NCBI GenBank assembly: GCA_964537315.1
Contig: CAZIAP010000002.1
Location: 107,237 to 171,236 of the forward strand
From: an uncultured Gammaproteobacteria bacterium
GTDB taxonomy: Bacteria > Patescibacteriota > Microgenomatia > Levybacterales > GWA1-39-11
Direction: 5' to 3'
Length of the DNA stretch: 64,000 nucleotides
Made by a program: the position numbers and the translations under genes
The notes under the pieces: model-generated
The model's input: the letters and a program-made list of their open reading frames with translations, nothing else
What the model was told of the DNA's origin: nothing
Databases searched by the model: none
Part shown: piece by piece, positions 28,788 through 60,122 of the stretch
Layout: every line of letters begins with the position of its first letter
Position numbering within the stretch: the stretch's first letter is position 1

Positions 28788-29909
28788 TTACAGTAAGAAT
28801 AAAAGTAATCCTCCGATTACAGTTATAACAACTGCCCCTCCTACTCCCAGCATAGTACCTATTGACCCTGGAGGTGCAATAGTGGGAATAGGGGCTTCAG
28901 TAGGAGCAATAGGTGTTTGTGCAGATGGAGTTGAATTGCCTGTATTCGCACTTACTATTACTGTCTGCGTACAAGCTGTACTGGAATCACCGTCATTATC
29001 AGTGAAAACAACCGATAAATTATAAGTGTTAGCAGTTGTATATGTATGACTTTGTTGAATGTTGGCAGACGGTGAACCTAAGCCTTCTGTAACATCAATA
29101 ACCTGTCCATCCCCAAAGTTAAATGTAGCTTTTACTACTTGTCCGTCAGTATCATTGCCTTGAGCGGTGAGTTGAGTTATAAGAGGTGCTGCTCCACTAG
29201 CAGGTATTATCTGAAGGCTTGAACAGACAGGTAACTTATTAGGAGATTTGGTTGGAGTAGGGTTTGAAGTAGGCGAAGCTGGTGGAGAAGCTGAGATTGT
29301 AGGACGACTTGTAGGTGTAGGGCTCGTTGTTCCTCCTGCAAGTATTGTTATAGAAGTTGGCGCTGCATTTACGAGCACATTTTCACCTGGACCATCATTA
29401 GTAGATATTGATAGAACTTGAGTAGATCCTGGGAAATCAAAAGAAATCTCCGTTGGAGTATCTGTTACCTCTAAAGCTTCGAGTTCGATAGTAGCAACTT
29501 TAAATGGTTGAGTAATGTCACCAGAAGGATCATAACCTGTATCTATAATCTTATTTATTCCGAACTCTACACTGGCAGTATTTTCAGTAATATCTGGCCC
29601 TGATAAAGTCGTAGATATATTCTGTGGATCAGGAGTAATCTGAGTTATTATAATTTTACTCGGATCAAACTGTAGTGAAAATTTAATAAAGGATGGGATA
29701 TTTTGACCGGGATCGAGCATTACGTCTACAGTAAACGACTCTCCTACAGCAACAGAGGGCTTTGAGGATACTAATGTAAGGTTGCTCGAAGGTGCTGCAC
29801 TACTTCTTAGGTCTTGTTGTTGCTTCACAAAATAAAGAGTTAAAGGTATAGTTACTAAAAGAAGCGCCAAAACTCCTATCAAAAAAAACTGTTTACTGGT
29901 GAATTTCAT
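28788..29909 (-). CDS. Surface protein with cohesin-like domain, PKD domain, Pro/Thr/Ser linker and C-terminal TM
   Basis: N-terminal signal anchor carrying the shared IPLTLYFVKQQQDLRSSAA motif. Cohesin-like beta-sandwich (VAVGESFTVDVMLDP...LQFDPSKIII). PKD-like FNFGDG...HTY. C-terminal helix GAVVITVIGGLLLFLL. Confidence 0.5.
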   Translation of the reverse strand: MKFTSKQFFLIGVLALLLVTIPLTLYFVKQQQDLRSSAAPSSNLTLVSSKPSVAVGESFTVDVMLDPGQNIPSFIKFSLQFDPSKIIITQITPDPQNISTTLSGPDITENTASVEFGINKIIDTGYDPSGDITQPFKVATIELEALEVTDTPTEISFDFPGSTQVLSISTNDGPGENVLVNAAPTSITILAGGTTSPTPTSRPTISASPPASPTSNPTPTKSPNKLPVCSSLQIIPASGAAPLITQLTAQGNDTDGQVVKATFNFGDGQVIDVTEGLGSPSANIQQSHTYTTANTYNLSVVFTDNDGDSSTACTQTVIVSANTGNSTPSAQTPIAPTEAPIPTIAPPGSIGTMLGVGGAVVITVIGGLLLFLL

Positions 29910-40762: not shown

Positions 40763-41143
40763 TTAAGCTGGAGGGTTATTTTTTTGATGAGAGACTTCCT
40801 GAAATTTTTTAGGAGGTTTTCGAAAATAAACTATACTGAGAAGTACAATCAGTAGTAATATCACTACATAAGATCCTTCCGTATATCCAAGCATACGCAG
40901 TAGCAAAGTTGCAACTACAAAAAGCGCAAAGAAAACTCCTTTAATACTATTAAAAAAAATGTAAGTAAATACAAGATACGCGTACAAAAAAATCAATAAA
41001 AAGAATAAAATAATCGGATCAATCATAAAAGTATATAACTCAATTTTTTGATGAGGATCAATAAAATAAACAAGTTCAAATAGTGCAATGCTGAAAATTG
41101 CAATCGCGATAATAAAATGCAGCAGGCGTTTTCTAGAATGCAT
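40763..41143 (-). CDS. Small 4-TM membrane protein
   Basis: 126 aa and hydrophobic; no family recognised. Confidence 0.3.
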   Translation of the reverse strand: MHSRKRLLHFIIAIAIFSIALFELVYFIDPHQKIELYTFMIDPIILFFLLIFLYAYLVFTYIFFNSIKGVFFALFVVATLLLRMLGYTEGSYVVILLLIVLLSIVYFRKPPKKFQEVSHQKNNPPA

Positions 41144-41464
41144 GTTTATAGTATAGAGTATTAAGTATTAATTATTAACGAGTTATTTATTAATGGGTTA
41201 AAAGGTTAAAAAGTTATTGATGAAAGGCTCAATAATTTGAGTAAACCTAAATCTTAAAATCTAAAAATGGTAAGTACTTTTAGAGATAAAAATTTAAATA
41301 GAAAATCGAAAATTGAAAATACATTTTAAAACTACGAACCATAAACTATTAACTAACCCGCTTTTGGGGGATAATCATCCGTGAACTAATAACTATAAAC
41401 TGATATTCTGTTGACTTTATATTTTTGCTTCTGTTACTCTTAAACTAGCGAGATTTATATTTAT

Positions 41465-43408
41465 ATGATGGATGGATTTAATCATCTAGTTTCTTCTTTT
41501 TTCTCATCTTCCAAAAACATGGCTGGAATGATTGTGATTTTAATAATTGCAATCGCAGTTCCTGTCACGTTAGGTCTTATCAAACAGAATCAGGATAATC
41601 GGCAGGAGGCTGCTACTACTTACAGGCCTGGAACAGCAGCAGAAATTGCGCAGTGTAAACAAGGGTGTAACGGCTTATCAAGCTGGAGCAAGAATGGATG
41701 TTTAACTAGTTGTGAAGGATTACAAGTACCAGTTAGCGATGGTTCTGGTTCATCAAGTACAAAAAAAGAGAATGGTGAGCGGTGTAATACAAATACTGAT
41801 TGTAAAAGTTCTCAGTGTACTACAGCTACTTACTGTGGAACAACAGCTAAATATTGTGTAGCAACCACATATTATCCCAATCGGAACGTAGCTTGTCCAG
41901 CTGGATCTGGAGGGTCATCAGATGCGTCATCTTGTACAGGCTCAACTAACAGGGGATACAATTGTGCTTGTACGTCCAATTCTCAGTGTTCTTCTGGTAG
42001 CTGTGGATATGTAGACTCACAATATAGTCAGTTGATAGGTAAAAAATGTCTTACCGGAACTAGTACTGCTCCTACATCTGCTCCCGCAGGTGGAGCTTCT
42101 GGTAACTTCTCATGTTCAATAAGCGCCAGACAGGCTACAATTATTACAAGTGGTGTGACTTCAGTTAATAACATTAGGGGGCAAGTTAATCCTTCAAATA
42201 ATACCGGAGGAAAATATAACAGAATACGATGGATATTAACACGTGGATCAACAACTGTGGTAGACGAACACTCGATTGGTAACACAAATAATCCAACAGA
42301 AAAGTATTTTAAGAGTCTTTCTGCAGGCACATATACTCTAAATGCAAGGTTTTATCCATTAGATGGCTCTGCAGCGTCTGTTTCTTGTGGTAGTAGTACT
42401 GTAACAATTTCATCTACAGGCAGTTTTGCTTGTACTATGAATGCGGGAGTAGAGTTGGGAAATGAAGTGTGGATGAAAGTAGATAAGCCTACAGGGGACA
42501 CAACGGGTTACGATAGAATCGTTTGGAGAATAGGAAATTCACTTGAAAAGCATACCAACGGTAATACAAACAATTTTACGATATCATCGTTTACAGGTGT
42601 TCCTTCTGGTACTCATAGGGCTTATGCTAATTTTTATTCTTCAAATGGAACAAAACCTTCTGAGTACTGTGGCGAGAAATGGGTGACTGTCGCTGCTGCA
42701 CCAACTAGTACTCCAACAAACACGCCTACGAAGACTCCAACAAATACGCCAACTGTAACAGTATCAGCTCCAGTGGGGGGGAATAATTCTACAGTGACAA
42801 GCACACCAACGAATACTCCTACTGCGACTAGCACTCCTACCAGAACCCCTACTACACCTGTAAATCCTACTGCGACTAGGACTCCTACTGCAACTCCAAC
42901 TACAAACCCTCAGCAAATGACATTGAAGTTGTCTGCCACTCTTCCGGGAATCGGGAGTGGAACTGGGAATAATGCCAATCCTAAACGTACTACACGAACG
43001 GGGTCAGTAGAGATCTATAATACTCAAAACGTCAAAGTAAAAGAAGGAGAGACAAGCTTTACATATCAAGGTGGCGTATACAGTGGAACTATTGAGATGA
43101 CTAACGCTCCTGCAGGTACATATTATGTAAAGATGAAATTTGATAACACGATCTTCCAGCAGTTGCCTGGTGTATATAACCTAACATTGGGAGCAAACAC
43201 GCTTCCTACTGTAGCGCTTGCTCCAGGTGATCTAAATCAGGACAATAACCTGAATATGCAGGACTACTCTATTTTTGTCAGCTGCTATGGCGAAAAAGAA
43301 TGCGAAGCTTCATCAAAGCAAATGTCTGACTTTAATGATGATGGGATAATTGATGGAATAGATTACAATATTTTGATCAGGTCATTTGCGATCAGATCAG
43401 GAGATTAA
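41465..43408 (+). CDS. Large secreted Cys-rich protein with tandem beta-sandwich repeats, Thr/Pro linker, Cna-B/CarboxypepD_reg-like domain and dockerin-like C-terminus
   Basis: Signal anchor with the shared VPVTLGLIKQNQDNRQEAA motif. Cys-rich module (about 28 Cys). Two roughly 100-aa internal repeats (NRIRWILTRG... and DRIVWRIGNS...). TPTNTPT linker. C-terminal duplicated D-x-N-x-D-G-x-I-D segments (DLNQDNNLNMQDYSIF, DFNDDGIIDGIDYNILIRSF). Confidence 0.55.
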   Translation: MMDGFNHLVSSFFSSSKNMAGMIVILIIAIAVPVTLGLIKQNQDNRQEAATTYRPGTAAEIAQCKQGCNGLSSWSKNGCLTSCEGLQVPVSDGSGSSSTKKENGERCNTNTDCKSSQCTTATYCGTTAKYCVATTYYPNRNVACPAGSGGSSDASSCTGSTNRGYNCACTSNSQCSSGSCGYVDSQYSQLIGKKCLTGTSTAPTSAPAGGASGNFSCSISARQATIITSGVTSVNNIRGQVNPSNNTGGKYNRIRWILTRGSTTVVDEHSIGNTNNPTEKYFKSLSAGTYTLNARFYPLDGSAASVSCGSSTVTISSTGSFACTMNAGVELGNEVWMKVDKPTGDTTGYDRIVWRIGNSLEKHTNGNTNNFTISSFTGVPSGTHRAYANFYSSNGTKPSEYCGEKWVTVAAAPTSTPTNTPTKTPTNTPTVTVSAPVGGNNSTVTSTPTNTPTATSTPTRTPTTPVNPTATRTPTATPTTNPQQMTLKLSATLPGIGSGTGNNANPKRTTRTGSVEIYNTQNVKVKEGETSFTYQGGVYSGTIEMTNAPAGTYYVKMKFDNTIFQQLPGVYNLTLGANTLPTVALAPGDLNQDNNLNMQDYSIFVSCYGEKECEASSKQMSDFNDDGIIDGIDYNILIRSFAIRSGD

Positions 43409-43454
43409 AGTAAAATACTGGATACAGAATACGGAATACAGTATACTAAAAACT

Positions 43455-44051
43455 ATGCCTAAGCGAACAGTTATATTGATCTTAGTTTTAACTATCTTAA
43501 CAGGAGTTTTGGTGTTTTTAGCGCTTAAGAATGAGCAGAGAACAGCACCTCAACAAGCTGGTGAAGGAGAAAGGATAACCGAAGATACAGCGCTGCCCGA
43601 GAAAACAGCAACTCTAACATTTGATCCTCAAATAATGGAAGCTATACCTTCAACCGCGTCAGCAAACACTGTTGATGTAGTACTCAATGCCAATGAGCAT
43701 ACTATTGATAGTGTTCAGCTCGAGATAGTTTATGACCCTGCTGATCTTTCTAATGTAACAGTGAGTGCACCGGAGAATAACATATTCGGTGGTCCAGGTA
43801 GCTATACTGTCATACCAATGCCTTCAGATCCTGCACTTGGTAGAGTTTCATTTGCAATGGGTATCAGTACTCAAGCTCAAGCAGTACAAGGTGCTGGTCC
43901 TGTAGCACGAATTTCATTCACGGTGAACCCATCAACTACAAAAGATGTTACTCAAATCCAGATCATGGATCGATCTATGATAGTTGAGACAAATAGTCAT
44001 GAAAGTGTTCTTGCGCCGGTTGATCCACTTACTATTAACATTATTCGGTAA
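43455..44051 (+). CDS. Secreted cohesin-like domain protein
   Basis: Signal anchor. The beta-sandwich segment ATLTFDP...VDVVLNANEHTIDSVQLEIVYDPADLSNVTV is cohesin-like. Start chosen at the ATG at 43455 (MPKRTV...). Confidence 0.45.
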   Translation: MPKRTVILILVLTILTGVLVFLALKNEQRTAPQQAGEGERITEDTALPEKTATLTFDPQIMEAIPSTASANTVDVVLNANEHTIDSVQLEIVYDPADLSNVTVSAPENNIFGGPGSYTVIPMPSDPALGRVSFAMGISTQAQAVQGAGPVARISFTVNPSTTKDVTQIQIMDRSMIVETNSHESVLAPVDPLTINIIR

Positions 44052-44057
44052 CGCTGC

Positions 44058-44855
44058 ATGAAAAATTTAGTTTCAAAATTCCCTCAGTATTTTTCTTCTC
44101 ATACAAGAGTCATCCCATTACTCGGAGTTCTTACATTACTTCTTGCACTTCCTTTAACTCTAAACCTAATTAAGAACAATCAAGATAATAGGCAGCAAGC
44201 TGCATCCTTAAATGATCAACTTTCTATACAGCAAAACAACCCGAATCCTGGTGTCCAAAGTTTAACATGTGAGTCAGTTAACGGAAGGTGTGTGACCGAA
44301 TCTGAGTGGGCAAGTACGCAGGCAATTTTTGCAGCTGCTTCTGTAGATGGTACATATGCTTGTCCTCAAAAAGGCGGACAGAACCAGGTTTGTATTGTAC
44401 AAGAACGAGCAAATGTATCTAATCAGACATGTGACGTATCTGCCGGATTCACTTGTGATTATCGAGGACACGATGAATGTGAGGCTACCCTCGGGGTTGG
44501 TAATTGTGAACATGAAGCGAATGCTAGATGTCATAATGGAAATCTGTGTATGAAAATTTCCAGTTCTTCAAACTCAAACTTTCCGCCTTTAGGTAGTCCA
44601 TGTCCTGACGGATCATCCAACTTCTCTTGTGGATATGGATCTCCAAATACACAGTGTCCAGTATGTAGCCCTACTTCCTCTTGTAGCACTGGAAACTATA
44701 CCATACAAGCCTGTTCAGGAGCTGGGTCGTGTACAAATGATCCTGACTGCGCAGGAAATCCTCCAAGTTGTCCTGCAGGACAGACTGGTCAGGTAGTTTG
44801 CCAAAAAGCTGCCGGGCAAACACAAGGTGCTTGTGTTACTGTTAACTGTCGATAA
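44058..44855 (+). CDS. Small secreted, extremely Cys-rich protein
   Basis: Signal anchor with the LPLTLNLIKNNQDNRQQAA motif. More than 30 Cys in roughly 210 mature residues (about 15%). No TM after the anchor. Confidence 0.5.
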   Translation: MKNLVSKFPQYFSSHTRVIPLLGVLTLLLALPLTLNLIKNNQDNRQQAASLNDQLSIQQNNPNPGVQSLTCESVNGRCVTESEWASTQAIFAAASVDGTYACPQKGGQNQVCIVQERANVSNQTCDVSAGFTCDYRGHDECEATLGVGNCEHEANARCHNGNLCMKISSSSNSNFPPLGSPCPDGSSNFSCGYGSPNTQCPVCSPTSSCSTGNYTIQACSGAGSCTNDPDCAGNPPSCPAGQTGQVVCQKAAGQTQGACVTVNCR

Positions 44856-44888
44856 ATTCATTAAGATAAGAGAGTGCATATCAAACTA

Positions 44889-44925
44889 TTGACAATATTT
44901 AGCACTCATGCTATCATTTTGCTAA
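44889..44925 (+). promoter_or_regulatory. hrcA promoter (TTGACA-N17-TATCAT) overlapping a CIRCE-like inverted repeat
   Basis: TTGACA 44889-94 and TATCAT 44912-17. TTAGCACTC (44899-907, exact CIRCE left arm)-N9-TTTTGCTAA (44917-25, 6/9 to GAGTGCTAA). An additional GAGTGC...GCACTC palindrome lies upstream. Confidence 0.55.
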
Positions 44926-44965
44926 TAGAGATTTAGTTAGTAATTTTAAGTTTTTAATCTGAAAT

Positions 44966-45688
44966 ATGTACGATCTTACACCTCGCCAGATAGAGATATT
45001 GAAAAATATTGTACGTGAGTACATAGACTCTGCTGAGGCAGTGGGCAGCGAAACTTTAGAAAAAAAATATGATCTCGGAGTTTCACCTGCAACTATCAGA
45101 AATGAAATGGCAGATATGGTAAAACTCGGATATCTTGCTAAGCCGCACTCTTCTTCAGGTCGTATTCCTACAAGTAAAGCCTTAAAACTATACGTAAACG
45201 AATTGATGAAAGAGAGAGAGCTCTCGGTTGCAGACGAAGTTGAAGCCAAAGAAAAGGTGTGGGACGTAAGAGATGCAGAGTCACAATTTTTCCGTCAACT
45301 GACACGCAGTCTCTCCCAAAAGACAGGTACATTAGCTGTTGCGGCAACCCAGGAGGGAGACATGTACTTTGCGGGTTATTCTAATATCTTAGATATGCCT
45401 GAGTTCTATGACATTGATATTACAAAAAATTTACTTGCAATTTTAGATGATGTGTCATATTTCGATATGATACTCAAACATATCGAAAATGATTATGCAG
45501 TTATACTTGGTGAAGATTTTGGTTTAGAACCATTAAGACCATACGGATTTGTGTTTTCTAAATATAGCACGAAGAAAAATAGAGAAGGTTCTATAGGTGT
45601 AATCGGTCCTGCCAGGCTACATTATGAATTAGTAGTCCCATGTGTTAGATACTACGGAAGCCTAGTTGGTGAAATTGCAGATTGGTAA
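44966..45688 (+). CDS. hrcA: Heat-inducible transcription repressor HrcA (short, 240 aa)
   Basis: N-terminal wHTH LTPRQIEILKNIVREYIDSAEAVGSETL. Position is immediately upstream of grpE-dnaK. Confidence 0.7.
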   Translation: MYDLTPRQIEILKNIVREYIDSAEAVGSETLEKKYDLGVSPATIRNEMADMVKLGYLAKPHSSSGRIPTSKALKLYVNELMKERELSVADEVEAKEKVWDVRDAESQFFRQLTRSLSQKTGTLAVAATQEGDMYFAGYSNILDMPEFYDIDITKNLLAILDDVSYFDMILKHIENDYAVILGEDFGLEPLRPYGFVFSKYSTKKNREGSIGVIGPARLHYELVVPCVRYYGSLVGEIADW

Positions 45689-48447: not shown

Positions 48448-48738
48448 ATGCCGTGTGAAGCAAATGAGGTTTATACTGACTTTGGGTGTGTTCCTAATGA
48501 TCCAATCGGATTTGTAGAAAGATTTTACGGAATAGGACTTTCGGTTATAGGAATGGTGGCTGTACTATTCCTTATAATTGGTGGGTATCATATTCTGACT
48601 TCTCAAGGGAGTCCTGAAAAGCTGCAAAAAGGTCGTGAATATATCTTGTATTCTATTTTAGGGTTACTGCTTGGAGTATTTGGGTTCGTTTTCGTACAGA
48701 TAATAACCGGTGTATTACATATTCCCGGATTTAGCTAA
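48448..48738 (+). CDS. Small 2-TM protein (VirB2/TrbC-pilin-like topology; alternatively holin-like)
   Basis: 96 aa. Polar N-terminus with two Cys (CEANEVYTDFGC), two hydrophobic helices separated by TSQGSPEKLQKGRE, and a short tail. Confidence 0.35.
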   Translation: MPCEANEVYTDFGCVPNDPIGFVERFYGIGLSVIGMVAVLFLIIGGYHILTSQGSPEKLQKGREYILYSILGLLLGVFGFVFVQIITGVLHIPGFS

Positions 48739-48744
48739 AGACTT

Positions 48745-51162
48745 ATGAAAAAATTTCTGCCCAAATTTGTACTTATCACATTTTTCTCTATTGCCTTTCT
48801 CCTTGTAGGTACTCTGACTAGCGTTAGTGCTCAGACATTAGACTCTCCGAATGATGTTAATAACGGTAACTGGGTTGAGGATCCAGAGGTGACATTTGTC
48901 GGAAAGGCAGCAAACAGAGCAAACGATTTTTTAAACTGGACATTGCAAAATTATAACTGGCTATGTGTAGAAAAAGCCGGTGATGCCTGTGTAAATACAT
49001 ATGACAATAATCCCTTAGTTGAGTTTTGGGAAATGGTGCGTAATATCATATATGCTTTACTTCTCTTATTTGTTTTGGGAACTGCGGGTGTAATTATAGT
49101 TACGCGAGGTCAAAACATCACTATTATGCGTTTTGTGCCTAGATTTATCGTAATTATTTTACTTGTTACATTTTCATTTGCGTTAGTTCAGTTCTTATAT
49201 GTTGTAGTTGATATTGTCCAAGGATTTTTCCTTCGACCTGATGGACCAGAAGGACCGCTAATTTCATCAGCTGATCTGCTTTATATAGCTTTTCCTTATG
49301 AATTTACTGGCTTTAGGGCACTAGGATCTGATAATGACGAATCCGCATTTATCTCATTGTTGCTTGTAAAACTAACCGCAATTACTTATTATGTGATGAC
49401 AGGTGTGTTATTAGTGCGAAAAATCATCCTCTGGTTTTTCCTTATCGTGTCACCTATATTTCCTCTGCTTATCTTTTACCGCCCTGTTCGCAATACCGCA
49501 AAGATTTGGGTTGGAGAGTTCTTCCGTTGGTTGTTGTACGCGCCTCTCTTTGCACTTTTTCTACACGGTTTGGTGGTTATGTGGAGAGATAAAATTCCAC
49601 TCGCATTTGATTTTAACTCACAGGGTAGTGTTGCAGGCACAGACGTACTCTATCCTACAGCAGTAAACATTTTAATCGGTGGACCAGGTCAACAGATAGG
49701 GATCAATAACTCAGTTAATCTTCCTGATACTTTCGCACTATACGTAGTTGCTTTAATCATGCTTTGGGTGGTTATCTTGCTACCATTTTTACTACTTCGA
49801 ATTTTCTTAGATTACTTTAATTCCATCTCATTTAGCGGATTTATGTCTAAGCAGGTCAACAAAAACTTTGCTTTCTTAAACCCACGTGGTCCATCGGGTG
49901 GTCCAACTCCTCCGCCTCCTCCGGGTAAGGTGTTTCCAACCGGCATGGCGCGTCAGTTGCCATTTTTGAATAAAGCCGCAAAAACAATTGAAGTTGGTAG
50001 GCCGGTCAGTACCAGTAGTACGAGAGATATTAGATCATCCGTGCAGTCTAATGTTAGCCAACCTGTAGCAGTAAGAGAGGTTAACGAAGTTCTCAAGTCT
50101 GTCAATATAAGTGTTCCTAAGATGCAGGACGTTGTGAAGTATGAGAGAGCGTTATTAAGTAATAATATTACTGAACGTCAAACAGTCACACAGTTCCGTG
50201 AGACATTAGAAAAAATTGCAAATCCAGCACAGGTTACTTCAGTTACAGAGCGTCAGCAGTTTAGCCAGATACACGAGAAGCTAACTACCCAGCAGGAGAG
50301 AGGAAACCCGTTGGCAACATCAATTCTTAAGGCTGCTGGAAAAACAACTGTAAGTAGTACAATTGATATTAATCAGCAGCTTCGAATGTTGCTCCAGCAG
50401 CTAGCGAGCCCATCTACTGTAAACCCACGTGTACGTCAAAAGATGAGTACACTTAAAACACAGCTTACAGGTGCTCAACATAGTGGAAATAATTTAGCAA
50501 CAACTGTGCTGACTACTGCTGAGAAAATCAGTAAAAAAGAGCTAACTAAAGAGCAGGAAGATGCAGCGATTGAGGAGATCAAGACAAAGATCCAGGAGCA
50601 AAAACAGACAAGCGATCCAGTTACTCAGTCTGTTGTATCTACGATGCAACAAGCACAGGCTGTAACAGAAACTCAATCATTACCTGTTATAAATAGAGTC
50701 CAGCAAGTAAGCATTGAAGATTATGAGGAGGTACGAAAGATGTGGGTAGAGAATTATGAGACATTAGAACCTCCTAAGACGCTTGAAGGCAAGCAACTGG
50801 AGAGAGAGGAATGGGTTAGAAGTGACGTGCAGAAGATTAATGAAGCAGTCACTCTGCTTTCATCTGTTGAGCCGCAAAAAGTTAATGAAGGTATGGAGAT
50901 GGTCGGAAGTATTTTGCCGTTCCTACTCATGGGAGGTTTCTCTAAATCTGAGGTTGTTGCCTACTTGAAAGCGAAGCTTGCAGCTGCCAAGTCTATACTG
51001 GAAGCAGCCGAAAAGCAGAAAGACGATGAAGATTCGATGATATATCGCGAGACCAAGAAAGAAGAGGCAAAAGAAATGAGCATAAAACATGCTATAGAGC
51101 TTCCGAGTGAAAAAGAATCGCCTAAAAATTCGGAAGACGACGAGACTAAGACTCAACCGTGA
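48745..51162 (+). CDS. Large polytopic membrane protein with Sec signal peptide, ~6 TMs, poly-Pro hinge and ~400-aa coiled/Q-rich cytoplasmic tail (VirB6/TrbL-like architecture)
   Basis: Signal peptide ...TSVSA|QT. The TM block spans roughly aa 95-330. GGPTPPPPPGK follows. A long hydrophilic C-terminus carries degenerate internal repeats. Confidence 0.4.
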   Translation: MKKFLPKFVLITFFSIAFLLVGTLTSVSAQTLDSPNDVNNGNWVEDPEVTFVGKAANRANDFLNWTLQNYNWLCVEKAGDACVNTYDNNPLVEFWEMVRNIIYALLLLFVLGTAGVIIVTRGQNITIMRFVPRFIVIILLVTFSFALVQFLYVVVDIVQGFFLRPDGPEGPLISSADLLYIAFPYEFTGFRALGSDNDESAFISLLLVKLTAITYYVMTGVLLVRKIILWFFLIVSPIFPLLIFYRPVRNTAKIWVGEFFRWLLYAPLFALFLHGLVVMWRDKIPLAFDFNSQGSVAGTDVLYPTAVNILIGGPGQQIGINNSVNLPDTFALYVVALIMLWVVILLPFLLLRIFLDYFNSISFSGFMSKQVNKNFAFLNPRGPSGGPTPPPPPGKVFPTGMARQLPFLNKAAKTIEVGRPVSTSSTRDIRSSVQSNVSQPVAVREVNEVLKSVNISVPKMQDVVKYERALLSNNITERQTVTQFRETLEKIANPAQVTSVTERQQFSQIHEKLTTQQERGNPLATSILKAAGKTTVSSTIDINQQLRMLLQQLASPSTVNPRVRQKMSTLKTQLTGAQHSGNNLATTVLTTAEKISKKELTKEQEDAAIEEIKTKIQEQKQTSDPVTQSVVSTMQQAQAVTETQSLPVINRVQQVSIEDYEEVRKMWVENYETLEPPKTLEGKQLEREEWVRSDVQKINEAVTLLSSVEPQKVNEGMEMVGSILPFLLMGGFSKSEVVAYLKAKLAAAKSILEAAEKQKDDEDSMIYRETKKEEAKEMSIKHAIELPSEKESPKNSEDDETKTQP

Positions 51163-51223: not shown

Positions 51224-54200
51224 ATGTTTGGAAATCTATTTAATCAGAAAAAAGATGGAACGGAAGAACAGGTTCCTCCTACACCTGTGCAGGTGCCACA
51301 GCAGGGAGTAAATCCTGTTGTTGACCCTTCTCAGCCGCAGATGACACAACAACCTCCACAAGTAGTGCAGACAGGTAGCGTAGAACAGACGACTACAGGT
51401 ATGGGAATTCAGGCAGGCCTGCCCGCAATGCAAAGCAACGCGTTTCAGGCGGGACCTGTTGTGTTTAGTCAGACTGACACAGTAACAAATACTCAAAATG
51501 TACCAATTCAACCTCAGCAACCGGGGCAAAATCCACAAGCCGTGTCTCAGCCAACTATGCCAGATCAAACAGTACCAGGTCAGCCTATTGCTCCTGATAA
51601 TCCAGGGATGGGAGCAGAGAAAATGCAAAACGTATCGGCTCTTTCTCGTTTGGATGCCAGAGCAACGCAGGTATTACACCATGCGCAAGAAGAAACCAGG
51701 AGGATTCAGCAAGCACTTATAGAACCTGACCAGATACTTTATGGCTTGATCTATGACAGTGGGGTATACAAGCTCCTTGAACAGTTCTCAATTGATGCAT
51801 CAAAAATTGCAAAAGATATACAAGGAAAATCCCAACAGGGTACATTTACAGGACAGCCAACTCTAAGCCCGCAGTCTCAAGAAATTTTTGATACTGCTTT
51901 TAATTCGGTAAAAGCGCGACAGGCAAGTTTTATAACTCCTGAGGATATTCTACTAGCCCTTTTCAATGCAGCAGCAATGGCTGAGTTTTTCAGAACTCAG
52001 GGAGTTGATAAAGGAAAAGTAGAAGAAAAGCTTGCAAAAAACACTAGTTTTGTGGGAGATGGAAAGAGATCAGTTCTGGATAAATACAGTATAGATCTTA
52101 CACAAAATGCAAGAGACGGCCTATTAGATCCAGTTACTGGACGTGACGTTGAGATAGAAAGACTTGTACACATTTTGCTTCGTAGAACAAAAAATAATCC
52201 GATAATTATAGGTGAAGCAGGTGTAGGAAAAACAGCTATAGTCGAAGCTATTGCACAAAAAATTGTAGATGGACAGATTCCTGAAGATCTAAAAAACAAA
52301 AAAATTATTCAGCTAGACCTTGCTTCGATGATTGCAGGTGCTGCTCGTAGAGGTGAGTTTGAAGAGCGCCTACGTAGTATTATTCAGGAGGTGCAAGCTT
52401 CTGGACAGATAATTTTATTCATCGATGAAATACATACTCTAGTTGGAGCAGGCGATTCGGGAGGCGCGCTGGATGCATCAAATATTATTAAACCATATCT
52501 TTCTCGTGGGCAGCTTCAGCTAATTGGTACAACCACAACTGCTGAGTTCAGGAAGTATTTTGAAAAAGACAAAGCATTTGAAAGAAGATTCCAACCGATT
52601 ATGGTTCAAGAACCGGACGAAGAGGTTGCGGTAGAGATGTTAAATGTTATCAAACCTAAATATGAAAAGTATCACAACGTTGTGATGACGCCTGAGTCTA
52701 TCGAAGCTGCTGTTGTGCTATCTAAAAAATATATCGGAGAAAGATTTCTACCCGATAAAGGTGTGGATTTGCTTGATGAAGCAGCTGCAGAGGTAAAGCT
52801 TGCTAAAGCAGAAGGGAAACGGCAGGATAATAATATTGTTAAAACTGATATAGAAAAAGTAGTTTCAAGTTGGACGGGGATTCCGATCACACGACTTACA
52901 GAAGACGAAAGTGAAAAGTTGCTGCACTTAGAAGATCATATTCATAAACGCCTCATTGATCAGGAGGAAGCTGTTGCAGCGGTCTCAGAGGCAGTACGTA
53001 GAGGGCGAATCGGTCTCGCTTCAGCAAACAGGCCGATTGCTTCATTTATATTTTTGGGTCCTACAGGTGTCGGTAAAACGGAGCTTGCCAAAACCCTTGC
53101 TGAGATTTTGTTTGGCAGGGATGACGCAACTATCCGACTTGATATGTCTGAGTATATGGAAAAGCATGAGGTTGCAAAACTTATCGGTGCTCCTCCGGGA
53201 TATGTAGGTTATGAAGAAGGCGGACAATTAACAGAAGCTGTAAGATCAAAACCATACTCAATTGTGCTCCTTGATGAGGTTGAGAAGGCACATCCTGATG
53301 TGTTTAATATTCTACTGCAAATTTTGGAAGATGGAAGACTCACCGATAATAAAGGTAATACAATTTCATTTAAAAATACTATTATTATTGCCACTTCAAA
53401 TCTTGGAAGCCACATAATCCAAAAGTTTTTACTTGAACGGGCAAAAAATTCTGGAAAATCTACCGAGAATATCGAAAGTTCTACAACTGAGAAGAATCCA
53501 GATGAATCCAAAGGTAAAGAAAATACTGAAAAACAGGCTAACTTAGAAAATGACGAGAAGAATAATGATGTCTCAACAGAGGGTGCACAATCTGGTAAGG
53601 ATACAACTGGATCAAAGTCATATTCAGAACAACGAGTAAATCTACAGCTTGGAGGAAATACTGATAAGAAAACCGATGGTGAGTTCGAAGAGCTGACAAA
53701 ATTACTGCAAGAAGAGCTGCATAAATTCTTCCGTCCTGAATTGTTGAATAGATTTGATGATCTTGTAGTATTCAAGCCGCTTGCACAGCGTGATATGATG
53801 CAGATTGCAAAGCTCGGTATCGGTAAAACTCAAAAACTCTTAAAAGAGCAAGGATTTGACATCCAAATTACGGATCTAGCACTGGATCAGCTGGCAAAAG
53901 AAGGGTACGATCCTGTATATGGTGCTCGACCTTTGAGAAGATTAATTCAAAACTCAATTGAAAACGCAATCGCTATTGCATTAATTAGTAAACAGTTTGT
54001 TGCTGGTGACACCATTATTATTGATTACGACACTACACAGCAAAAGTTTGCTTTCTCAAAGGGAGCTTCTCAAAACCAGTCAGGACAGCCACAGGGAGAG
54101 GGTTCTCAACCACCTACTGGGCCAGGTCAGCCTGTCAATACCCAAGGTACAACAAATCAACAAACTGGATTACCCCAGAACTCTCCTCAAGCTCAGATAC

Positions 54201-54463
54201 CAAATCAGAACACAGGTCAGGTAGTTAATCAAAATCCTGCAACACAGCAACCTGTTCAGCCAACTGCTCCACAAGAAGTGTACTATGGTGTTCCTCCTCA
54301 GAATCAGCAAGTAAATTCTCAGCCAGTTCAACCAAATCAACCTATTGGACAAGAAAATGGAACAGGTATAGTGCAGCCACCGCAAACACCTCCACAGTAT
54401 CCGCAGACTAACGGTGCGGGTCCGGCAGGAAATGGCGCAACCATGAATACGTCTGTATCCTAG
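51224..54463 (+). CDS. ClpC/ClpA-like double-ring AAA+ ATPase with Q/P-rich N- and C-terminal extensions and a low-complexity insert in D2
   Basis: Clp_N-like repeat. D1 Walker A IIIGEAGVGKTAIVEAIA, Walker B ILFIDEIHTLVGAG. D2 Walker A FIFLGPTGVGKTELAKTLAE, Walker B IVLLDEVEKAHPDV. The short inter-ring linker means no ClpB-type M-domain. A roughly 100-aa K/E/S/T-rich insert at 53433-53735 replaces the usual ClpP-binding IG[FL] loop. Confidence 0.8.
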   Translation: MFGNLFNQKKDGTEEQVPPTPVQVPQQGVNPVVDPSQPQMTQQPPQVVQTGSVEQTTTGMGIQAGLPAMQSNAFQAGPVVFSQTDTVTNTQNVPIQPQQPGQNPQAVSQPTMPDQTVPGQPIAPDNPGMGAEKMQNVSALSRLDARATQVLHHAQEETRRIQQALIEPDQILYGLIYDSGVYKLLEQFSIDASKIAKDIQGKSQQGTFTGQPTLSPQSQEIFDTAFNSVKARQASFITPEDILLALFNAAAMAEFFRTQGVDKGKVEEKLAKNTSFVGDGKRSVLDKYSIDLTQNARDGLLDPVTGRDVEIERLVHILLRRTKNNPIIIGEAGVGKTAIVEAIAQKIVDGQIPEDLKNKKIIQLDLASMIAGAARRGEFEERLRSIIQEVQASGQIILFIDEIHTLVGAGDSGGALDASNIIKPYLSRGQLQLIGTTTTAEFRKYFEKDKAFERRFQPIMVQEPDEEVAVEMLNVIKPKYEKYHNVVMTPESIEAAVVLSKKYIGERFLPDKGVDLLDEAAAEVKLAKAEGKRQDNNIVKTDIEKVVSSWTGIPITRLTEDESEKLLHLEDHIHKRLIDQEEAVAAVSEAVRRGRIGLASANRPIASFIFLGPTGVGKTELAKTLAEILFGRDDATIRLDMSEYMEKHEVAKLIGAPPGYVGYEEGGQLTEAVRSKPYSIVLLDEVEKAHPDVFNILLQILEDGRLTDNKGNTISFKNTIIIATSNLGSHIIQKFLLERAKNSGKSTENIESSTTEKNPDESKGKENTEKQANLENDEKNNDVSTEGAQSGKDTTGSKSYSEQRVNLQLGGNTDKKTDGEFEELTKLLQEELHKFFRPELLNRFDDLVVFKPLAQRDMMQIAKLGIGKTQKLLKEQGFDIQITDLALDQLAKEGYDPVYGARPLRRLIQNSIENAIAIALISKQFVAGDTIIIDYDTTQQKFAFSKGASQNQSGQPQGEGSQPPTGPGQPVNTQGTTNQQTGLPQNSPQAQIPNQNTGQVVNQNPATQQPVQPTAPQEVYYGVPPQNQQVNSQPVQPNQPIGQENGTGIVQPPQTPPQYPQTNGAGPAGNGATMNTSVS

Positions 54464-54464
54464 T

Positions 54465-56408
54465 ATGGAAAATCCGCAGTCTTCAAGTTTTACATCACTG
54501 TTTCAATCTCGTAGGTTTCTAATTGCAGCAGGATTTATTTTACTTCTTGTGCTTGTTGGAGTAGGAATATTTTTTATCTTAAGCAGCAAGCCTCCACTCG
54601 AGCCTATTCCTGAAGGCTCTGTGTACACTCCCGACGAAGTAACTGTACAGTTTGCGCAAGGTTATACACCTGCTCCGCAGGGAGAGAATGAAAATTGGGA
54701 TAGGTTGTATGCAAAGCTCCAAGAACTGGGCGTTCAGTCATACTCTAAAGTGTTCGATTCAAATGATCCTGATTTATCAAGATATTATAAGCTTAAGCTT
54801 TCTTCTGATGCTGAAGTTGCCACAATCCGTGAAGAGTTATATAAGCTTGATGAAATAAAAGCTTCTGAACCTGAGTATATCCTCAGTACTCAGTTGAGTG
54901 CTAATGATGCAGAATATTCTGGTATGTGGGGACTGAAAAAAATTGATATTGAAAAAGCTTGGGATGTAACCAGAGGCTCAAACTCTGTGAAAGTCGCAGT
55001 GGTAGATACGGGAATTGACTATAATCACCCTGATTTCGCAGGGAGATCAATTATTAAGGGTAAGGACGTATCAACTTGCGACAGCACATACCAAGAGCTT
55101 CTTGCTTCAAACGGTCAATGTACGAAACCTAAACAACCTGATAATGACCCATTAGATAGTAATAACGGACACGGCACTCACGTTGCGGGAACAATAGGCG
55201 CTGCGACTAATAATGGAATAGGAGTCTCTGGAGTAAATTGGAACGTAACACTAATTGCCGTAAAAACGATGGGAGAAGGTGGCGCAGGGGGTATGTCTGA
55301 AATTGCAAATGGATTGGTAGATGCAGTGGATAGAGGAGCTGATGTGGTAAATATGAGTCTTGGTGGAGAGGGAACATGTACATCTCAGATGCAACAAGCG
55401 ATAAATTATGCCAGAAATAAAGGAGCTGCTATAGTAGTCGCTGCCGGAAACGGTGACAGAAATGGTAATCCTATTGATGCCTCTCGGGTTACTCCAGCGA
55501 GCTGTACAGGTGTAATTGTGGTTGGAGCAACGGGACCAAATGATGAACGCTCAAGTTATTCAAACTACGGAACACGGGTAGATCTAGCGGCGCCTGGAGG
55601 AAATGAACCAAGAGGAACATCATCATGCACAAAATCTAATTGCATAACTTCAACATGGCCAGGAAGACAGTACAGATCGGTTCAAGGTACATCTATGGCA
55701 GCGCCTCACGTAGCAGGTGTCGCAGCTCTTCTGCTGGCACAAAATGGCAGCCTAACACCGGATGACATTAAAAGATGTCTTATTAACAGTGGAAACCCAA
55801 TAAGTACAGACAGACCAATTGGTGGAAAAAGACTTAATGCATATAGTGCGCTTAACGGCTGTATAGCAAGTGCGAATCAGCCGACGACTCCTCCTGCAAA
55901 TCCGCCTACTGCTACTCCAACAGATACGCAAGCGCAAACACCAGCCATTGAACCATCAGAGTATTATCTAAAAGGTTTTACATACTCGGATGCTAATAAT
56001 AATCTTACCTTTGATTCAGGAGAGACCATGGTTGCGGGAGTCATATTGAAGTTGACTGATGAATCAAACGTAAACACTAATATTCCTACTGGAGCAGATG
56101 GTAAGTTCGAATTTAGAAATTTAAAACCTGGTTCTTATCTATTAACCGCAACAGTTGGTACTCGAGATGTGATGGAGTATAGAATAGGACTTGATTTAAA
56201 TATGAGCAGCCAAAACATACCAATTCCGATTCCCTCAGTAGAACCGTCTGATCCCGATAATCCTTCACAAGGGGAGAATAGGGTAATTATAACAGGCTCA
56301 CCTACTCCAACTCCTCGTCCGTTACATACATGTGTAGAGAAGACTACTCAGCAACGTGTTAATAACCGTGTCTTGCAGCTTAAGTACCTCGACTGCACTC
56401 CTATATAA
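54465..56408 (+). CDS. Membrane-anchored subtilisin-like serine protease (S8) with C-terminal Cna-B/CarboxypepD_reg-like domain
   Basis: N-terminal TM. Catalytic triad motifs VAVVDTGIDYNHPDF (Asp), HGTHVAGTIGA (His) and GTSMAAPHVAGVAALL (Ser). The C-terminal segment DGKFEFRNLKPGSYLLTA is a prealbumin-like fold. Confidence 0.85.
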   Translation: MENPQSSSFTSLFQSRRFLIAAGFILLLVLVGVGIFFILSSKPPLEPIPEGSVYTPDEVTVQFAQGYTPAPQGENENWDRLYAKLQELGVQSYSKVFDSNDPDLSRYYKLKLSSDAEVATIREELYKLDEIKASEPEYILSTQLSANDAEYSGMWGLKKIDIEKAWDVTRGSNSVKVAVVDTGIDYNHPDFAGRSIIKGKDVSTCDSTYQELLASNGQCTKPKQPDNDPLDSNNGHGTHVAGTIGAATNNGIGVSGVNWNVTLIAVKTMGEGGAGGMSEIANGLVDAVDRGADVVNMSLGGEGTCTSQMQQAINYARNKGAAIVVAAGNGDRNGNPIDASRVTPASCTGVIVVGATGPNDERSSYSNYGTRVDLAAPGGNEPRGTSSCTKSNCITSTWPGRQYRSVQGTSMAAPHVAGVAALLLAQNGSLTPDDIKRCLINSGNPISTDRPIGGKRLNAYSALNGCIASANQPTTPPANPPTATPTDTQAQTPAIEPSEYYLKGFTYSDANNNLTFDSGETMVAGVILKLTDESNVNTNIPTGADGKFEFRNLKPGSYLLTATVGTRDVMEYRIGLDLNMSSQNIPIPIPSVEPSDPDNPSQGENRVIITGSPTPTPRPLHTCVEKTTQQRVNNRVLQLKYLDCTPI

Positions 56409-57405: not shown

Positions 57406-57732
57406 ATGCCTGCCCTGCTGTACCCTATTTTTCTATTGAAATTTTGGTATATCGATGCGACAAAGTTTTTTTTGCACGTTTACCGTGAACTATTTGTTTA
57501 TTGTTTGTCTCTTTTTTCTCTACCATTACTCATTCGTTCATTCTTCAGACCGGTTAAAAACGAGTACAGAAAGGACTTAGTATTGTTTTCTATTTTTTTC
57601 GGTATGGGGGTAAAATCTGTACTTATCAGTATATCTATCGCAATTATGCTGTTTCTATTACTTGTAGGCGTAATATTACTTATTAGTTTTTGGGCATTTC
57701 CTTACTTTGTCTATCAGCTATTAAGCTTATGA
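57406..57732 (+). CDS. Small 3-TM membrane protein
   Basis: 108 aa and hydrophobic. It overlaps the start of the following AAA+ gene, so its reality is uncertain. Confidence 0.3.
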   Translation: MPALLYPIFLLKFWYIDATKFFLHVYRELFVYCLSLFSLPLLIRSFFRPVKNEYRKDLVLFSIFFGMGVKSVLISISIAIMLFLLLVGVILLISFWAFPYFVYQLLSL

Positions 57733-60122
57733 ACGATTATAAAAACCTGTTTACATATTATTCTTTTTTTAATACTGGCTGGGTGGTATTGGTAAGATAT
57801 GTCATTTTTTTCGCGTGTTTACTGCTTCTTTTTCTATTTATCCAGGATCTAGATAAGTCTAAAATGATCTTAGCAGGATTCATGCTTTTTTTAGCAAATG
57901 AGCTATTTATACATCTGAAAATAAATAAAGTTCGTCCTCAAAAGACAGTTTCACAGGTTGCAGTCGATACGCTTGAGTTAGCAGTTTTTTTCCGTCCGCT
58001 TTTATTTCTTAGACATTCTAAGAATGGAATAGATCTTGCTCGTAAGCTGGTAAGACATCCCGCAAATACATATTTACTAGGAAAAATTACTGGTTCACTG
58101 GCGATACCAGAAGCAGATGTAGAAATAACAGCAATACTTCAAAAAGCTTATGTATTAGTTAATAGTGTAAAAGGACAGTATATCTCTCAACTCGATTTAT
58201 TTGCTGCTTATATTCTGCTCGCGGAAAACTCTGTGCACATGCTTGAGAATGCGGATATGAACGAACAGGACTTTATAAACATATACTACTGGGCACGTAA
58301 TTCCTATAAGGTTGATGAAAATAATAAGCCATTTAAGATGTCATTTTATGGAGATGGTTCTTTTGATTTTTTTGTTTACGGTTGGAGTACAGAGTTAAAA
58401 AAATATGCAAGAAGTGTTAATTCAAGTGTGCTTTCTCGCAAGCATATTCCTCGTGTTATCGGGCGAGGTGCAGAATACGAACAATTGATTGTTGCACTAA
58501 GTAAACCGCAAGCTCGCAATATACTGCTTATCGGTGAACCCGGTACCGGAAAAACTTCACTTGTCGAGTTTTTCTCGTACAATTCTCATCTTGGTAAAGT
58601 CCCTGCTCAACTATCTAATATGCAAGTATATGAAATATTCATTGATAGGTTACTAGCTGGAGTATCTGATAGAGGAGAGCTTGAACATCGTTTAGTTACA
58701 CTGATCGATGAAGCGGGTCATGCCGGAAACATCATATTATTTATACAGAACATTGAAAATATTTTTGGTGCGGGAGGATTTGATTTTGATATCTCAGGAG
58801 TACTATATGATTACCTTAAAAACGGAATGTTAACTGTTATCGGTACAACAACAAACTCCGCTTATAATACTCACATTGCAAATCGTGAAGCTACAGCTGC
58901 GCTTTTTACAGCAATCGATCTTCCTGAGCCGGATGAGGATACTACACTTTACATGTTATTTGAAAAAGTAGGAGATATAGAGCGTCAGTACGGTGTTGAT
59001 ATTACCTACTCTGCAGTAAAAACACTAACCACTTTATCAGGAAGTTATCTGACAGATAGAGCTTTGCCTGGAAAGGCGATTACTGTTTTAGAAGATATAG
59101 CTACCTCCCAGCAGATAAAAGGAAAACATCCTATTATTACAAAAGAAGTTGTGGAAGCGCATCTATCTGCGAAGACTCGCATTATTATTGGTAATCCAAC
59201 TAAAGAAGAAAAAGAACTACTGCTTAATCTTGAGGATAAACTGCACGAACGTATTGTAAGTCAGGATAGAGCAGTACAGGTAGTGGCAAATGCCATGCGT
59301 CGAGTTAGAAGTGGACTTAAATCAGGACATAGGCCAATAGCTGTTTTTCTATTTCTTGGACAGACTGGCGTGGGAAAAACGGAGACAGCAAAAGCTTTGG
59401 CAGAGGTTTATTTTGGAAGCGATGAGTCTATGATCAGGCTAGATATGAGTGAGTTTCAGAATCAGGATTCAATAGGAAAGTTACTAGGGGAGCAGGTTGG
59501 TCAAGAATACGCGGAAAATGCATTTACTGAGCAAGTTGCTAAAAATCCTTTTTCTCTCATCCTTTTAGATGAGTTTGAAAAAGCCCACCCGCAAATTTTA
59601 AATTTATTTCTTCAGGTTTTTGAGGATGGTAGGCTAACGGATAATAAAGGCAGAACTGTATCATTTCAAAACTCCATTATCATAGCTACATCCAACGCTG
59701 GTAGTGAGTATATACGTCAACAAGCTGGTCAGATTACCGACATTGATGTATTTACAAAACAGTTAATGGATATGCTGATGCGATCAGGACAGTTTAAGCC
59801 GGAGTTGCTTAACCGCTTTGATGAAACAGTTGTGTTTACTCCGCTTACCAAAGAAAATTTGCTCTCAGTTGCCAGCTTACTGCTTCAGAAAGCACTTGCT
59901 CCTCTGCAGGACAAGCAGATTAGCATAACATTTGATCAGGCTATTTTGAACAAAATCGTTTCAGAAAGCTATGATGAATATTTTGGAGCGCGGAACATTC
60001 GAAGATATATTACATCAACGGTTTCGGGATATATATCAGACCTCGTATTAAAAGATCAGCTTAAAAAAGGTTCACAGGCGGTACTTACAGTTGATTCATC
60101 GAATCAAATAACGATAAGATAG
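57690..60122 (+). CDS. Membrane-anchored Clp/Hsp100-like double AAA+ ATPase with degenerate D1 Walker B
   Basis: The N-terminal 90 aa form 2-3 TM helices in place of a Clp_N domain. D1 Walker A LIGEPGTGKTSLVEF. D1 Walker B reads ILFIQNIENIFGAG, i.e. QN where DE is expected (Q353/N354, nt 58746-58751). D2 Walker A FLFLGQTGVGKTETAKALAE and Walker B LILLDEFEKAHPQI are canonical. No IG[FL] loop. Confidence 0.75.
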   Translation: MGISLLCLSAIKLMNDYKNLFTYYSFFNTGWVVLVRYVIFFACLLLLFLFIQDLDKSKMILAGFMLFLANELFIHLKINKVRPQKTVSQVAVDTLELAVFFRPLLFLRHSKNGIDLARKLVRHPANTYLLGKITGSLAIPEADVEITAILQKAYVLVNSVKGQYISQLDLFAAYILLAENSVHMLENADMNEQDFINIYYWARNSYKVDENNKPFKMSFYGDGSFDFFVYGWSTELKKYARSVNSSVLSRKHIPRVIGRGAEYEQLIVALSKPQARNILLIGEPGTGKTSLVEFFSYNSHLGKVPAQLSNMQVYEIFIDRLLAGVSDRGELEHRLVTLIDEAGHAGNIILFIQNIENIFGAGGFDFDISGVLYDYLKNGMLTVIGTTTNSAYNTHIANREATAALFTAIDLPEPDEDTTLYMLFEKVGDIERQYGVDITYSAVKTLTTLSGSYLTDRALPGKAITVLEDIATSQQIKGKHPIITKEVVEAHLSAKTRIIIGNPTKEEKELLLNLEDKLHERIVSQDRAVQVVANAMRRVRSGLKSGHRPIAVFLFLGQTGVGKTETAKALAEVYFGSDESMIRLDMSEFQNQDSIGKLLGEQVGQEYAENAFTEQVAKNPFSLILLDEFEKAHPQILNLFLQVFEDGRLTDNKGRTVSFQNSIIIATSNAGSEYIRQQAGQITDIDVFTKQLMDMLMRSGQFKPELLNRFDETVVFTPLTKENLLSVASLLLQKALAPLQDKQISITFDQAILNKIVSESYDEYFGARNIRRYITSTVSGYISDLVLKDQLKKGSQAVLTVDSSNQITIR

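Follow-up and report, generated by a model that had tools for sequence, protein, structure and literature searches.

A dockerin-tailed secreted protein and a membrane-anchored single-cohesin protein form a candidate surface-display cassette in a Microgenomates bacterium

Three neighboring genes in a 64,000-nucleotide stretch of contig CAZIAP010000002.1 (assembly GCA_964537315.1), from a Microgenomates bacterium (Candidatus Levyibacteriota) belonging to the candidate phyla radiation (CPR), probably act together as a surface-display cassette; the whole stretch analyzed is referred to below as the window. Gene A (41465..43408, + strand), the cargo, encodes a secreted Cys-rich protein of 647 amino acids (aa) with 22 Cys and a C-terminal X-module-dockerin (XDoc) unit. 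Gene B (43455..44051, +), the anchor, encodes 198 aa with no Cys, consisting of an N-terminal membrane helix and a single cohesin. Gene C (44058..44855, +), third in the cassette, encodes a secreted Cys-rich protein of 265 aa that bears the cargo leader motif. The domain identities of A and B as dockerin and cohesin are close to certain. One-to-one tethering of secreted A at the cell surface by the cohesin of B is our preferred interpretation, to which we assign a probability of roughly 0.6; one cohesin per protein, together with the lack of a recognizable enzyme domain in A, argues for such tethering and not for a cellulosome. A preliminary description of this DNA had proposed a scaffolding or adhesion system. 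The analysis supports that proposal with refinements; because each cohesin protein has only a single cohesin, the arrangement is read as anchoring rather than scaffolding.

The dockerin of A spans aa 586-647 (43220..43405, +) and is recognized by Pfam Dockerin_1 (PF00404) at 30.3 bits against a gathering score of 22.9 (E=4.7e-7; aa 587-640, profile positions 1-55 of 57), with orthologues of A scoring 29.1 and 30.5 bits. The preliminary description had pointed to two dockerin-like calcium-loop segments at the C-terminus of the 647-aa Cys-rich protein. Both were located in the translation of open reading frame (ORF) 41465-43408, as DLNQDNNLNMQD (43229-43264, +) and DFNDDGIIDGID (43328-43363, +), and they are the sole two matches to the dockerin-loop pattern in the six-frame translation of the 64 kb. 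Each loop has 12 residues, with D or N at positions 1, 3, 5, 9 and 12, and the loop starts lie 33 residues apart. Neither loop varies among the orthologues found in five other assemblies, where a CYGxxxC between the loops is likewise conserved; orthologues of A occupy the same position in the fetched loci L001, L006, L008/L009 and L010. Among PDB sequences the best match of A is a cellulosomal dockerin (2y3n_B, E=0.0018), and aa 540-647 weakly match the XDoc of CipA (2b59_B). A search of NCBIfam gave nothing informative for A, B, C or the further protein D (introduced below), the dockerin_GC model scoring 15.2 bits against a cut-off of 29.

Structure prediction indicates that this dockerin is part of a type II-like XDoc unit. 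The last 164 residues of A (aa 484-647) were modeled with AlphaFold2 (AF2) from a 23-sequence alignment, giving a predicted local distance difference test score (pLDDT) of 93.7 and a predicted template modeling score (pTM) of 0.86. In the model a beta-sandwich leads into three helices; two (aa 598-607 and 631-646) come directly after the Ca-loops, with a short helix (615-621) between them. The sandwich, which resembles an X-module, covers aa 484-585 (42914..43219, +) and is packed on the dockerin in the model. The top eight Foldseek matches of this unit in the PDB were all type II XDoc dyads from Clostridium thermocellum and Acetivibrio cellulolyticus, aligned over the full length of the model (162-171 columns) at template modeling (TM) scores of 0.58-0.65 and 15-19% identity, and the matches ranked below these were unrelated sandwiches, their E-values poorer by a factor of about ten or more. 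The combination of X-module and dockerin recurs in distant proteins. The two dockerin repeats of A are asymmetric, positions 10-11 reading M-Q in repeat one and G-I in repeat two; judging from the residues, this would fit a single binding mode as in type II.

The start codon of B was placed at 43455 (MPKRTV...) on the strength of a common N-terminus, since nine close homologues all begin MPKRT and continue into a hydrophobic helix. B comprises the membrane helix (aa ~4-27), a flexible linker of ~20 aa and the cohesin (aa ~50-198; 43602-44048), and it contains the segment TVDVVLNANEHTIDSVQLEIVYDPADLSNVTVS. Pfam Cohesin (PF00963) matches aa 75-184 at a marginal 25.9 bits against 24.1 (E=1.2e-5). 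No PDB chain matched the sequence of B even at E<=10, and the link to solved cohesins is by fold only. In an AF2 model built from nine sequences (pLDDT 78.9), a helix at 3-30 and disorder at 29-46 precede a beta-sandwich, and the blocks over aa ~51-170 are mostly at pLDDT 82-93. In Foldseek, the top 50 PDB matches of B consist entirely of cohesins, both non-cellulosomal ones and those of types I, II and III (best E=1.9e-8; TM 0.73-0.76, normalized to target). The suggestion that the gene following A is cohesin-like was thus borne out, and two checks proposed with it, by profile hidden Markov models (HMMs) and by fold, came out positive for both proteins: the Pfam scores exceed the gathering scores for dockerin and cohesin, and the leading structural matches are all XDoc dyads for A and all cohesins for B.

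The family to which B belongs is large and made up of small proteins with one membrane helix and one cohesin, a conclusion drawn from the family profile search and the Pfam Cohesin results. The search covered 1.84 billion representative proteins, with clusters formed at 50% identity; at E<=1e-3 it found 1125 clusters, and at E<=1e-10 it found 564. Of the best 150 representatives, nearly all are 190-220 aa long, match end to end and have one cohesin; among 56 diverse members, 46 match Pfam Cohesin at E<0.01 (best E=1.2e-12). The family is CPR-specific, with a length of ~200 aa and a conserved N-terminus made up of MPKRT and the membrane helix. The positively charged residues before this helix suggest, by the positive-inside rule, that the N-terminus of B lies inside the cell and the cohesin outside.

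The proposed pairing of A with B is in keeping with gene order. The three genes are tightly spaced, with 46 nt from the stop of A to B and 6 nt from B to C, and the order A-B-C-hrcA-grpE-dnaK recurs in relatives whose B is 45-70% identical. Adjacency was assessed more widely by running a dockerin HMM, made from A orthologues, on every fetched locus, with incomplete neighboring genes judged by eye; the nine-sequence alignment of B had yielded three genome loci. At 12 of 13 independent assessable B-family loci the adjoining gene ends in a two-loop dockerin, and this holds for B-family members only ~30% identical to B. Single adjoining dockerin genes occur in L017, L018, L019 and L020, one lies on each side in L016, and L014 has two, one of them with VWA and SdrD_B domains. 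The exception is L021, in which the neighboring 890-aa protein has the cargo leader and ends in a two-helix membrane hairpin, not a dockerin; the hairpin resembles a type IV secretion system (T4SS)-pilin-like protein encoded in the window at 48448-48738. A membrane anchor in the dockerin's place fits the idea of the dockerin as an anchoring device. Two proteins combine a cohesin-like domain and a dockerin (L016:3320-4657 and L019:4637-5962), so small chains are possible. Related tails also occur on distant proteins with C1A protease, M14 carboxypeptidase, BNR/sialidase-type, lectin or cupredoxin domains, and this variety makes the tether appear general-purpose.

On a more distant CPR-like contig, two secreted proteins (L013:679-1101 and L013:1056-2285) are encoded upstream of two cohesin genes and have at their ends just one dockerin-like loop, with a helix (GDLNGDNEINGIDWSLMKIYFGQ), rather than a duplicated pair; this may be a half-dockerin.

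The same domains might be read without any cohesin-dockerin interaction: the tail of A could be a module for Ca2+-stabilized folding or for binding glycans or the host, and B a membrane chaperone, a pilot or a structural envelope protein that shares the fold. The marginal Pfam score of B is compatible with this, as is the fact that A-B binding is a prediction, and a suggestion that dockerin domains of Patescibacteria target host glycans appears in the literature. Both partners of a known binding pair are nevertheless kept adjacent across a large family, and by fold the two proteins match cohesins and XDoc dyads specifically rather than sandwiches in general. Conservation is also higher in the dockerin (72-89%) than in the cohesin or the remainder of A (44-74%), a pattern to be expected of a module that mediates an interaction. 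We therefore regard the absence of an interaction as improbable.

A second cohesin-like protein in the window, D (gene 28788..29909, - strand; 373 aa), bears on the choice of partner. From its N-terminus D comprises a leader (29796-29909, -, containing FVKQQQDLRSSAA), a cohesin-like domain (29325-29801, -; aa 37-195), a Pro/Thr linker, a PKD domain (28959-29192, -; aa 240-317) and a hydrophobic segment that forms a C-terminal membrane helix (28791-28874, -). The PKD assignment (PF00801) scores 32.9 bits against a cut-off of 23.5, and the PDB sequence matches are PKD domains of collagenases. The preliminary description had listed this protein as cohesin-like, and the stretch FTVDVMLDPGQNIPSFIKFSLQFDPSKIIITQITP is present in D. 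The evidence for that claim is indirect: D itself has no Pfam Cohesin match at E<=1, and its N-terminal domain found no homologue at E<=1e-3 among 5.8 billion proteins, but profile-profile comparison with the B family by hhalign gave 92.9% (E=3.6e-7, 121 columns), rising to 96.7% (E=4e-10, 137 columns) when D was profiled together with a homologue from L013. A local HMM of the B family also matched D (domain E=6e-4, aa 37-195), the sole other ORF in the window to do so. The homologue, L013:3001-3657, was the one locus found in a metagenome scan with D (best-segment identity 30%, 35% over the aligned domain); it has a 15-residue stretch, SVAVGESFTVDVMLD, in common with D and scores 35.9 bits on Pfam Cohesin, above the cut-off. 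By these comparisons, a cohesin-like fold for D is probable.

The C-terminus of D (...IAPPGSIGTMLGVGGAVVITVIGGLLLFLL) has no LPXTG and no charged tail and does not qualify as a sortase substrate. The L013 homologue ends in LPETAS, a hydrophobic segment and R (LPETAS...GVR), a sortase-type signal, and D in IAPPGSIG and a hydrophobic helix; the two may be anchored differently.

With its cohesin-like domain and a membrane anchor of its own, D could be the protein that receives A. The dockerin of A might bind D or a cohesin encoded outside the window, while B takes other dockerins and adjacency reflects co-regulation only. Two of the loci described above, L014 and L016, have two dockerin genes per B-type cohesin, and the proteins with both domains (in L016 and L019) point the same way; taken together, the two-dockerin loci and the dual-domain proteins show a network rather than strict pairs. 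Set against this, a dockerin gene adjoins the B-family gene in 12 of 13 loci at ~30% identity, and no dockerin gene adjoins D, the only dockerin found by the HMM scan of the window being that of A, 46 nt upstream of B. A different partner for A is thus unlikely, if less so than no interaction at all.

A, C and D have an N-terminal leader in common, in which a hydrophobic helix with the ending P-(V/L)-T-L precedes the motif K-(Q/N)-(N/Q)-Q-D-x-R-x-x-A-A. In A the leader (41465..41617, +) has one hydrophobic helix and then the motif LIKQNQDNRQEAA, a possible processing site. The motif sites are at 41570-41617 (A, +), 44160-44207 (C, +) and 29796-29840 (D, -). The motif was also found in L013, L019 and L021 and in proteins P0166, P0169, P0171 and P0202, among them distant proteins with a dockerin tail. 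None of the 158 B-family proteins examined has it, and there were no matches beyond residue 90 in 54 kaa. Neither Pfam nor NCBIfam has a model for it, and a literature search on the motif string gave nothing relevant. The motif may be a CPR-specific signal or processing site. Its distribution fits a scheme in which cargo is processed and released and the cohesin protein keeps its membrane helix, with cleavage itself conjectured from the motif. The motif-bearing proteins differ in their means of attachment, which is a dockerin in A, a C-terminal helix in D and nothing obvious in C.

Protein C has 22 Cys, of which 19 are invariant in five orthologues (46-60% identical), and these orthologues always come directly after B in close relatives. 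It has no dockerin and no match in Pfam or NCBIfam. The leader of C is 46% identical to that of A; a paralogous relationship between A and C was considered and rejected, the similarity being confined to the leaders. Disulfide-rich secreted proteins such as A and C, with 22 Cys each, stand out in a presumably anaerobic CPR bacterium.

The remainder of A consists of regions that would be displayed. A Cys-rich N-terminal region (41654..42049, +; aa 64-195) contains 16 Cys and has no Pfam or NCBIfam match. It is followed by two tandem repeats of ~100 aa (42095..42694, +; aa 211-316 and 317-410), and a pair of Cys encloses each of them; the repeats match each other (phmmer, E~1e-9) and are present in the orthologues P0160-P0162 as well. 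A Pro/Thr-rich linker, recognized from the sequence (42695..42913, +; aa 411-483), leads to the X-module. Neither Pfam nor NCBIfam identifies a catalytic domain or a carbohydrate-binding module (CBM) in A. Most likely A serves as an adhesin or a binding protein: the lack of an enzyme domain and the VWA/SdrD_B-type neighboring cargo of relatives make an adhesive role the best guess.

The analysis shows which domains are present, their predicted folds, the membrane helix and the conserved adjacency of the genes; from this arrangement we infer binding of A to B, its Ca2+ dependence, leader cleavage and the adhesive role, in the following sequence. B would sit in the cytoplasmic membrane, anchored there by its N-terminal helix, with the positively charged MPKRT inside and its single cohesin outside on the short flexible linker. 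A would be exported and its leader probably removed at the KQNQDNRQEAA motif. The XDoc unit of A, folded around two Ca2+ ions, would then plug into the cohesin of B in a Ca2+-dependent manner, so that the disulfide-rich N-terminal region and the two repeats would be held non-covalently on the surface at the end of the Pro/Thr linker. D would be a second cohesin-like surface protein, with a C-terminal anchor, and could take the dockerin of A or another.

Several points weigh against tethering of A by B. The Pfam Cohesin score of B is just 1.8 bits over the cut-off, and confidence in its model is moderate (pLDDT 78.9, nine sequences). By TM-score B is closest to type I cohesins and the dockerin unit of A to type II XDoc, so that the pair has no clean type fit. 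The case for A binding B consists of genomic adjacency, and A could in truth pair with D or with cohesins encoded outside the window. If the N-terminal hydrophobic helix of A stays uncleaved, it already anchors the protein, and the dockerin would be redundant for retention. Finally, the data give no indication of what A binds, and its adhesive role is a best guess.

The best known setting for these domains is the cellulosome, and a minimal one, with enzymes for polysaccharide degradation brought together on the cell by cohesin and dockerin, deserves consideration. According to the study by Bell et al. (bioRxiv 10.1101/2021.08.21.457207; PMC9123182), cohesin and dockerin proteins are expressed from a metagenome-assembled genome (MAG) of Shapirobacterales (Microgenomates), and they are read there as cellulosome components. 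Related XDoc tails do occur elsewhere on hydrolases (C1A protease, M14 carboxypeptidase, BNR/sialidase-type), and the window encodes a GDE_C/glycoside-hydrolase-like protein (1650-3002), though without a dockerin. Against such an assembly, the cohesin proteins of the window and of the B family each have a single cohesin, and the window holds no further cohesin-like ORF. A has neither a catalytic nor a carbohydrate-binding domain by Pfam and NCBIfam, no other dockerin is present in the 64 kb, and no carbohydrate-active enzyme (CAZyme) or CBM with a dockerin is encoded there. The neighboring cargo of relatives is of the adhesin-like VWA/SdrD_B type. A cellulosome was consequently rejected, with neither a multi-cohesin scaffoldin nor a dockerin-bearing CAZyme or CBM found across the 64-kb window and the B family, and we consider it the most improbable of the alternatives.

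Cohesins and dockerins have been seen in CPR genomes before. In addition to the Shapirobacterales proteins, Wang et al. (2023; PMC10633639) describe SEML1_0315, a dockerin-domain envelope protein of a Saccharibacterium that is essential for growth on the host. The proteins in these two reports have the same domain types and come from the same superphylum as the locus described here, and are reported there by domain annotation only. The presence of the domains in CPR is therefore not new. The preliminary description called a cohesin-dockerin pair unusual in such bacteria, but the pair is not rare among them: the B family has at least 1125 clusters, and Bell et al. had earlier described expressed cohesin and dockerin proteins from a Microgenomates genome. 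In a limited full-text search of open-access papers, no description was found of the B family as membrane-held proteins with one cohesin, of its near-universal adjacency to genes with dockerin tails, of the XDoc fold of the tail, or of a leader specific to cargo.

Comparison with characterized systems clarifies which features are shared. In type II pairs, the role of the cohesin-dockerin interaction is cell attachment rather than enzyme integration. The nearest known system is the type II cohesin/XDoc pair, by which scaffoldins of the cellulosome are attached to anchoring proteins on the cell, as in the CipA XDoc with SdbA, OlpB or ScaA and the A. cellulolyticus ScaA XDoc with ScaB (PDB 2b59, 5k39, 5m0y and 4wi0). 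As in those pairs, the C-terminal beta-sandwich X-module of A is, in the model, rigidly packed on a two-loop, three-helix dockerin, and its presumed partner, a cohesin, belongs to a protein attached to the cell. The differences are that the anchor B is a ~200-aa protein with one cohesin only and an N-terminal membrane helix in place of SLH repeats; that the cargo A is not a scaffoldin and has no cohesins or CBM; that B superposes best on type I cohesins; and that the organism is a CPR bacterium without a cellulosome.

The single-cohesin plan of B is that of Ruminococcus flavefaciens ScaE, a sortase-anchored single cohesin that serves as surface anchor for XDoc proteins, and an autonomous single cohesin (PDB 4n2o) is among the fold matches of B. 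Unlike ScaE, B is held by an N-terminal membrane helix and D by a membrane helix lacking LPXTG, and there is no cellulolytic context. Non-cellulosomal modules from Archaeoglobus fulgidus (2xdh) and from the glycoside-hydrolase complexes of Clostridium perfringens (2jh2, 2vo8) also appear among the fold matches of B, at ranks 33 and 46-48. The locus described here resembles these in using cohesin and dockerin outside cellulose degradation, but unlike them has its membrane-anchor and cargo genes paired in an operon. Non-cellulosomal cohesin-dockerin modules were reportedly surveyed by Peer et al. in 2009.

The cassette is flanked on one side by a divergent gene for a small membrane protein (40763-41143, -) and on the other by the heat-shock genes hrcA, grpE and dnaK. 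A promoter and terminator scan of 41000-45100 gave counts at chance level, the sole strong site being a promoter-like match before hrcA. This site (44889-44925) is sigma-70-like, matching at 11 of 12 positions with a TG extension, and is overlapped by a repeat resembling the controlling inverted repeat of chaperone expression (CIRCE), TTAGCACTC-N9-TTTGCTAA, with three mismatches (0.03 expected by chance). The promoter-like site and CIRCE-like repeat of hrcA indicate that the cassette ends before this gene.

Directly after dnaK, and kept in relatives, is a gene pair encoding the 96-aa T4SS-pilin (VirB2/TrbC)-like two-helix protein mentioned above (48448-48738) and an 805-aa TrbL/VirB6-like membrane protein (48745-51162). 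The ORFs at 51224-54463, 54465-56408 and 57690-60122 include two Clp/Hsp100-type double-AAA ATPases, and between these two lies a secreted-type S8 subtilase with an SdrD_B-like domain and no dockerin. The first of the ATPases is unusually long (1079 aa), with a Clp_N match from about residue 230 onward and its second AAA module separated from the D2-small domain by a gap of ~100 residues. The nearest syntenic locus, L012/L001 (GCA_964448725.1, contig CAYVAJ010000001.1), is in a public record titled "uncultured Gammaproteobacteria bacterium"; its gene content and order match the Levyibacteriota-type window, and the label is probably wrong.

A life fastened to other cells is presumed for CPR bacteria, and to the little-understood question of how their surface proteins are mounted this locus offers a simple and testable answer. 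It also corrects a likely misreading: a cellulosome should not be concluded from matches to cohesin and dockerin in CPR genomes. The cargo in relatives ranges from Cys-rich and VWA-type adhesin-like proteins to proteases and sialidase-like enzymes. With a cohesin of 150 aa and an XDoc of 164 aa, the pair is small and self-contained and could serve as an orthogonal protein-display tag. More tentatively, and with the odds against it, the membrane cohesin, the XDoc cargo and the cargo leader (a hydrophobic helix and K-Q-x-Q-D-x-R-x-x-A) may make up a surface-display pathway found throughout the Microgenomates/CPR lineage, in which a dedicated peptidase would cut the cargo and the cohesin would recapture it non-covalently. 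Such a pathway would replace or complement sortase or S-layer anchoring and would be a route by which episymbionts present adhesins and hydrolases to their hosts. It would also supply a partner and a mechanism for the essential dockerin-domain envelope protein of Saccharibacteria.

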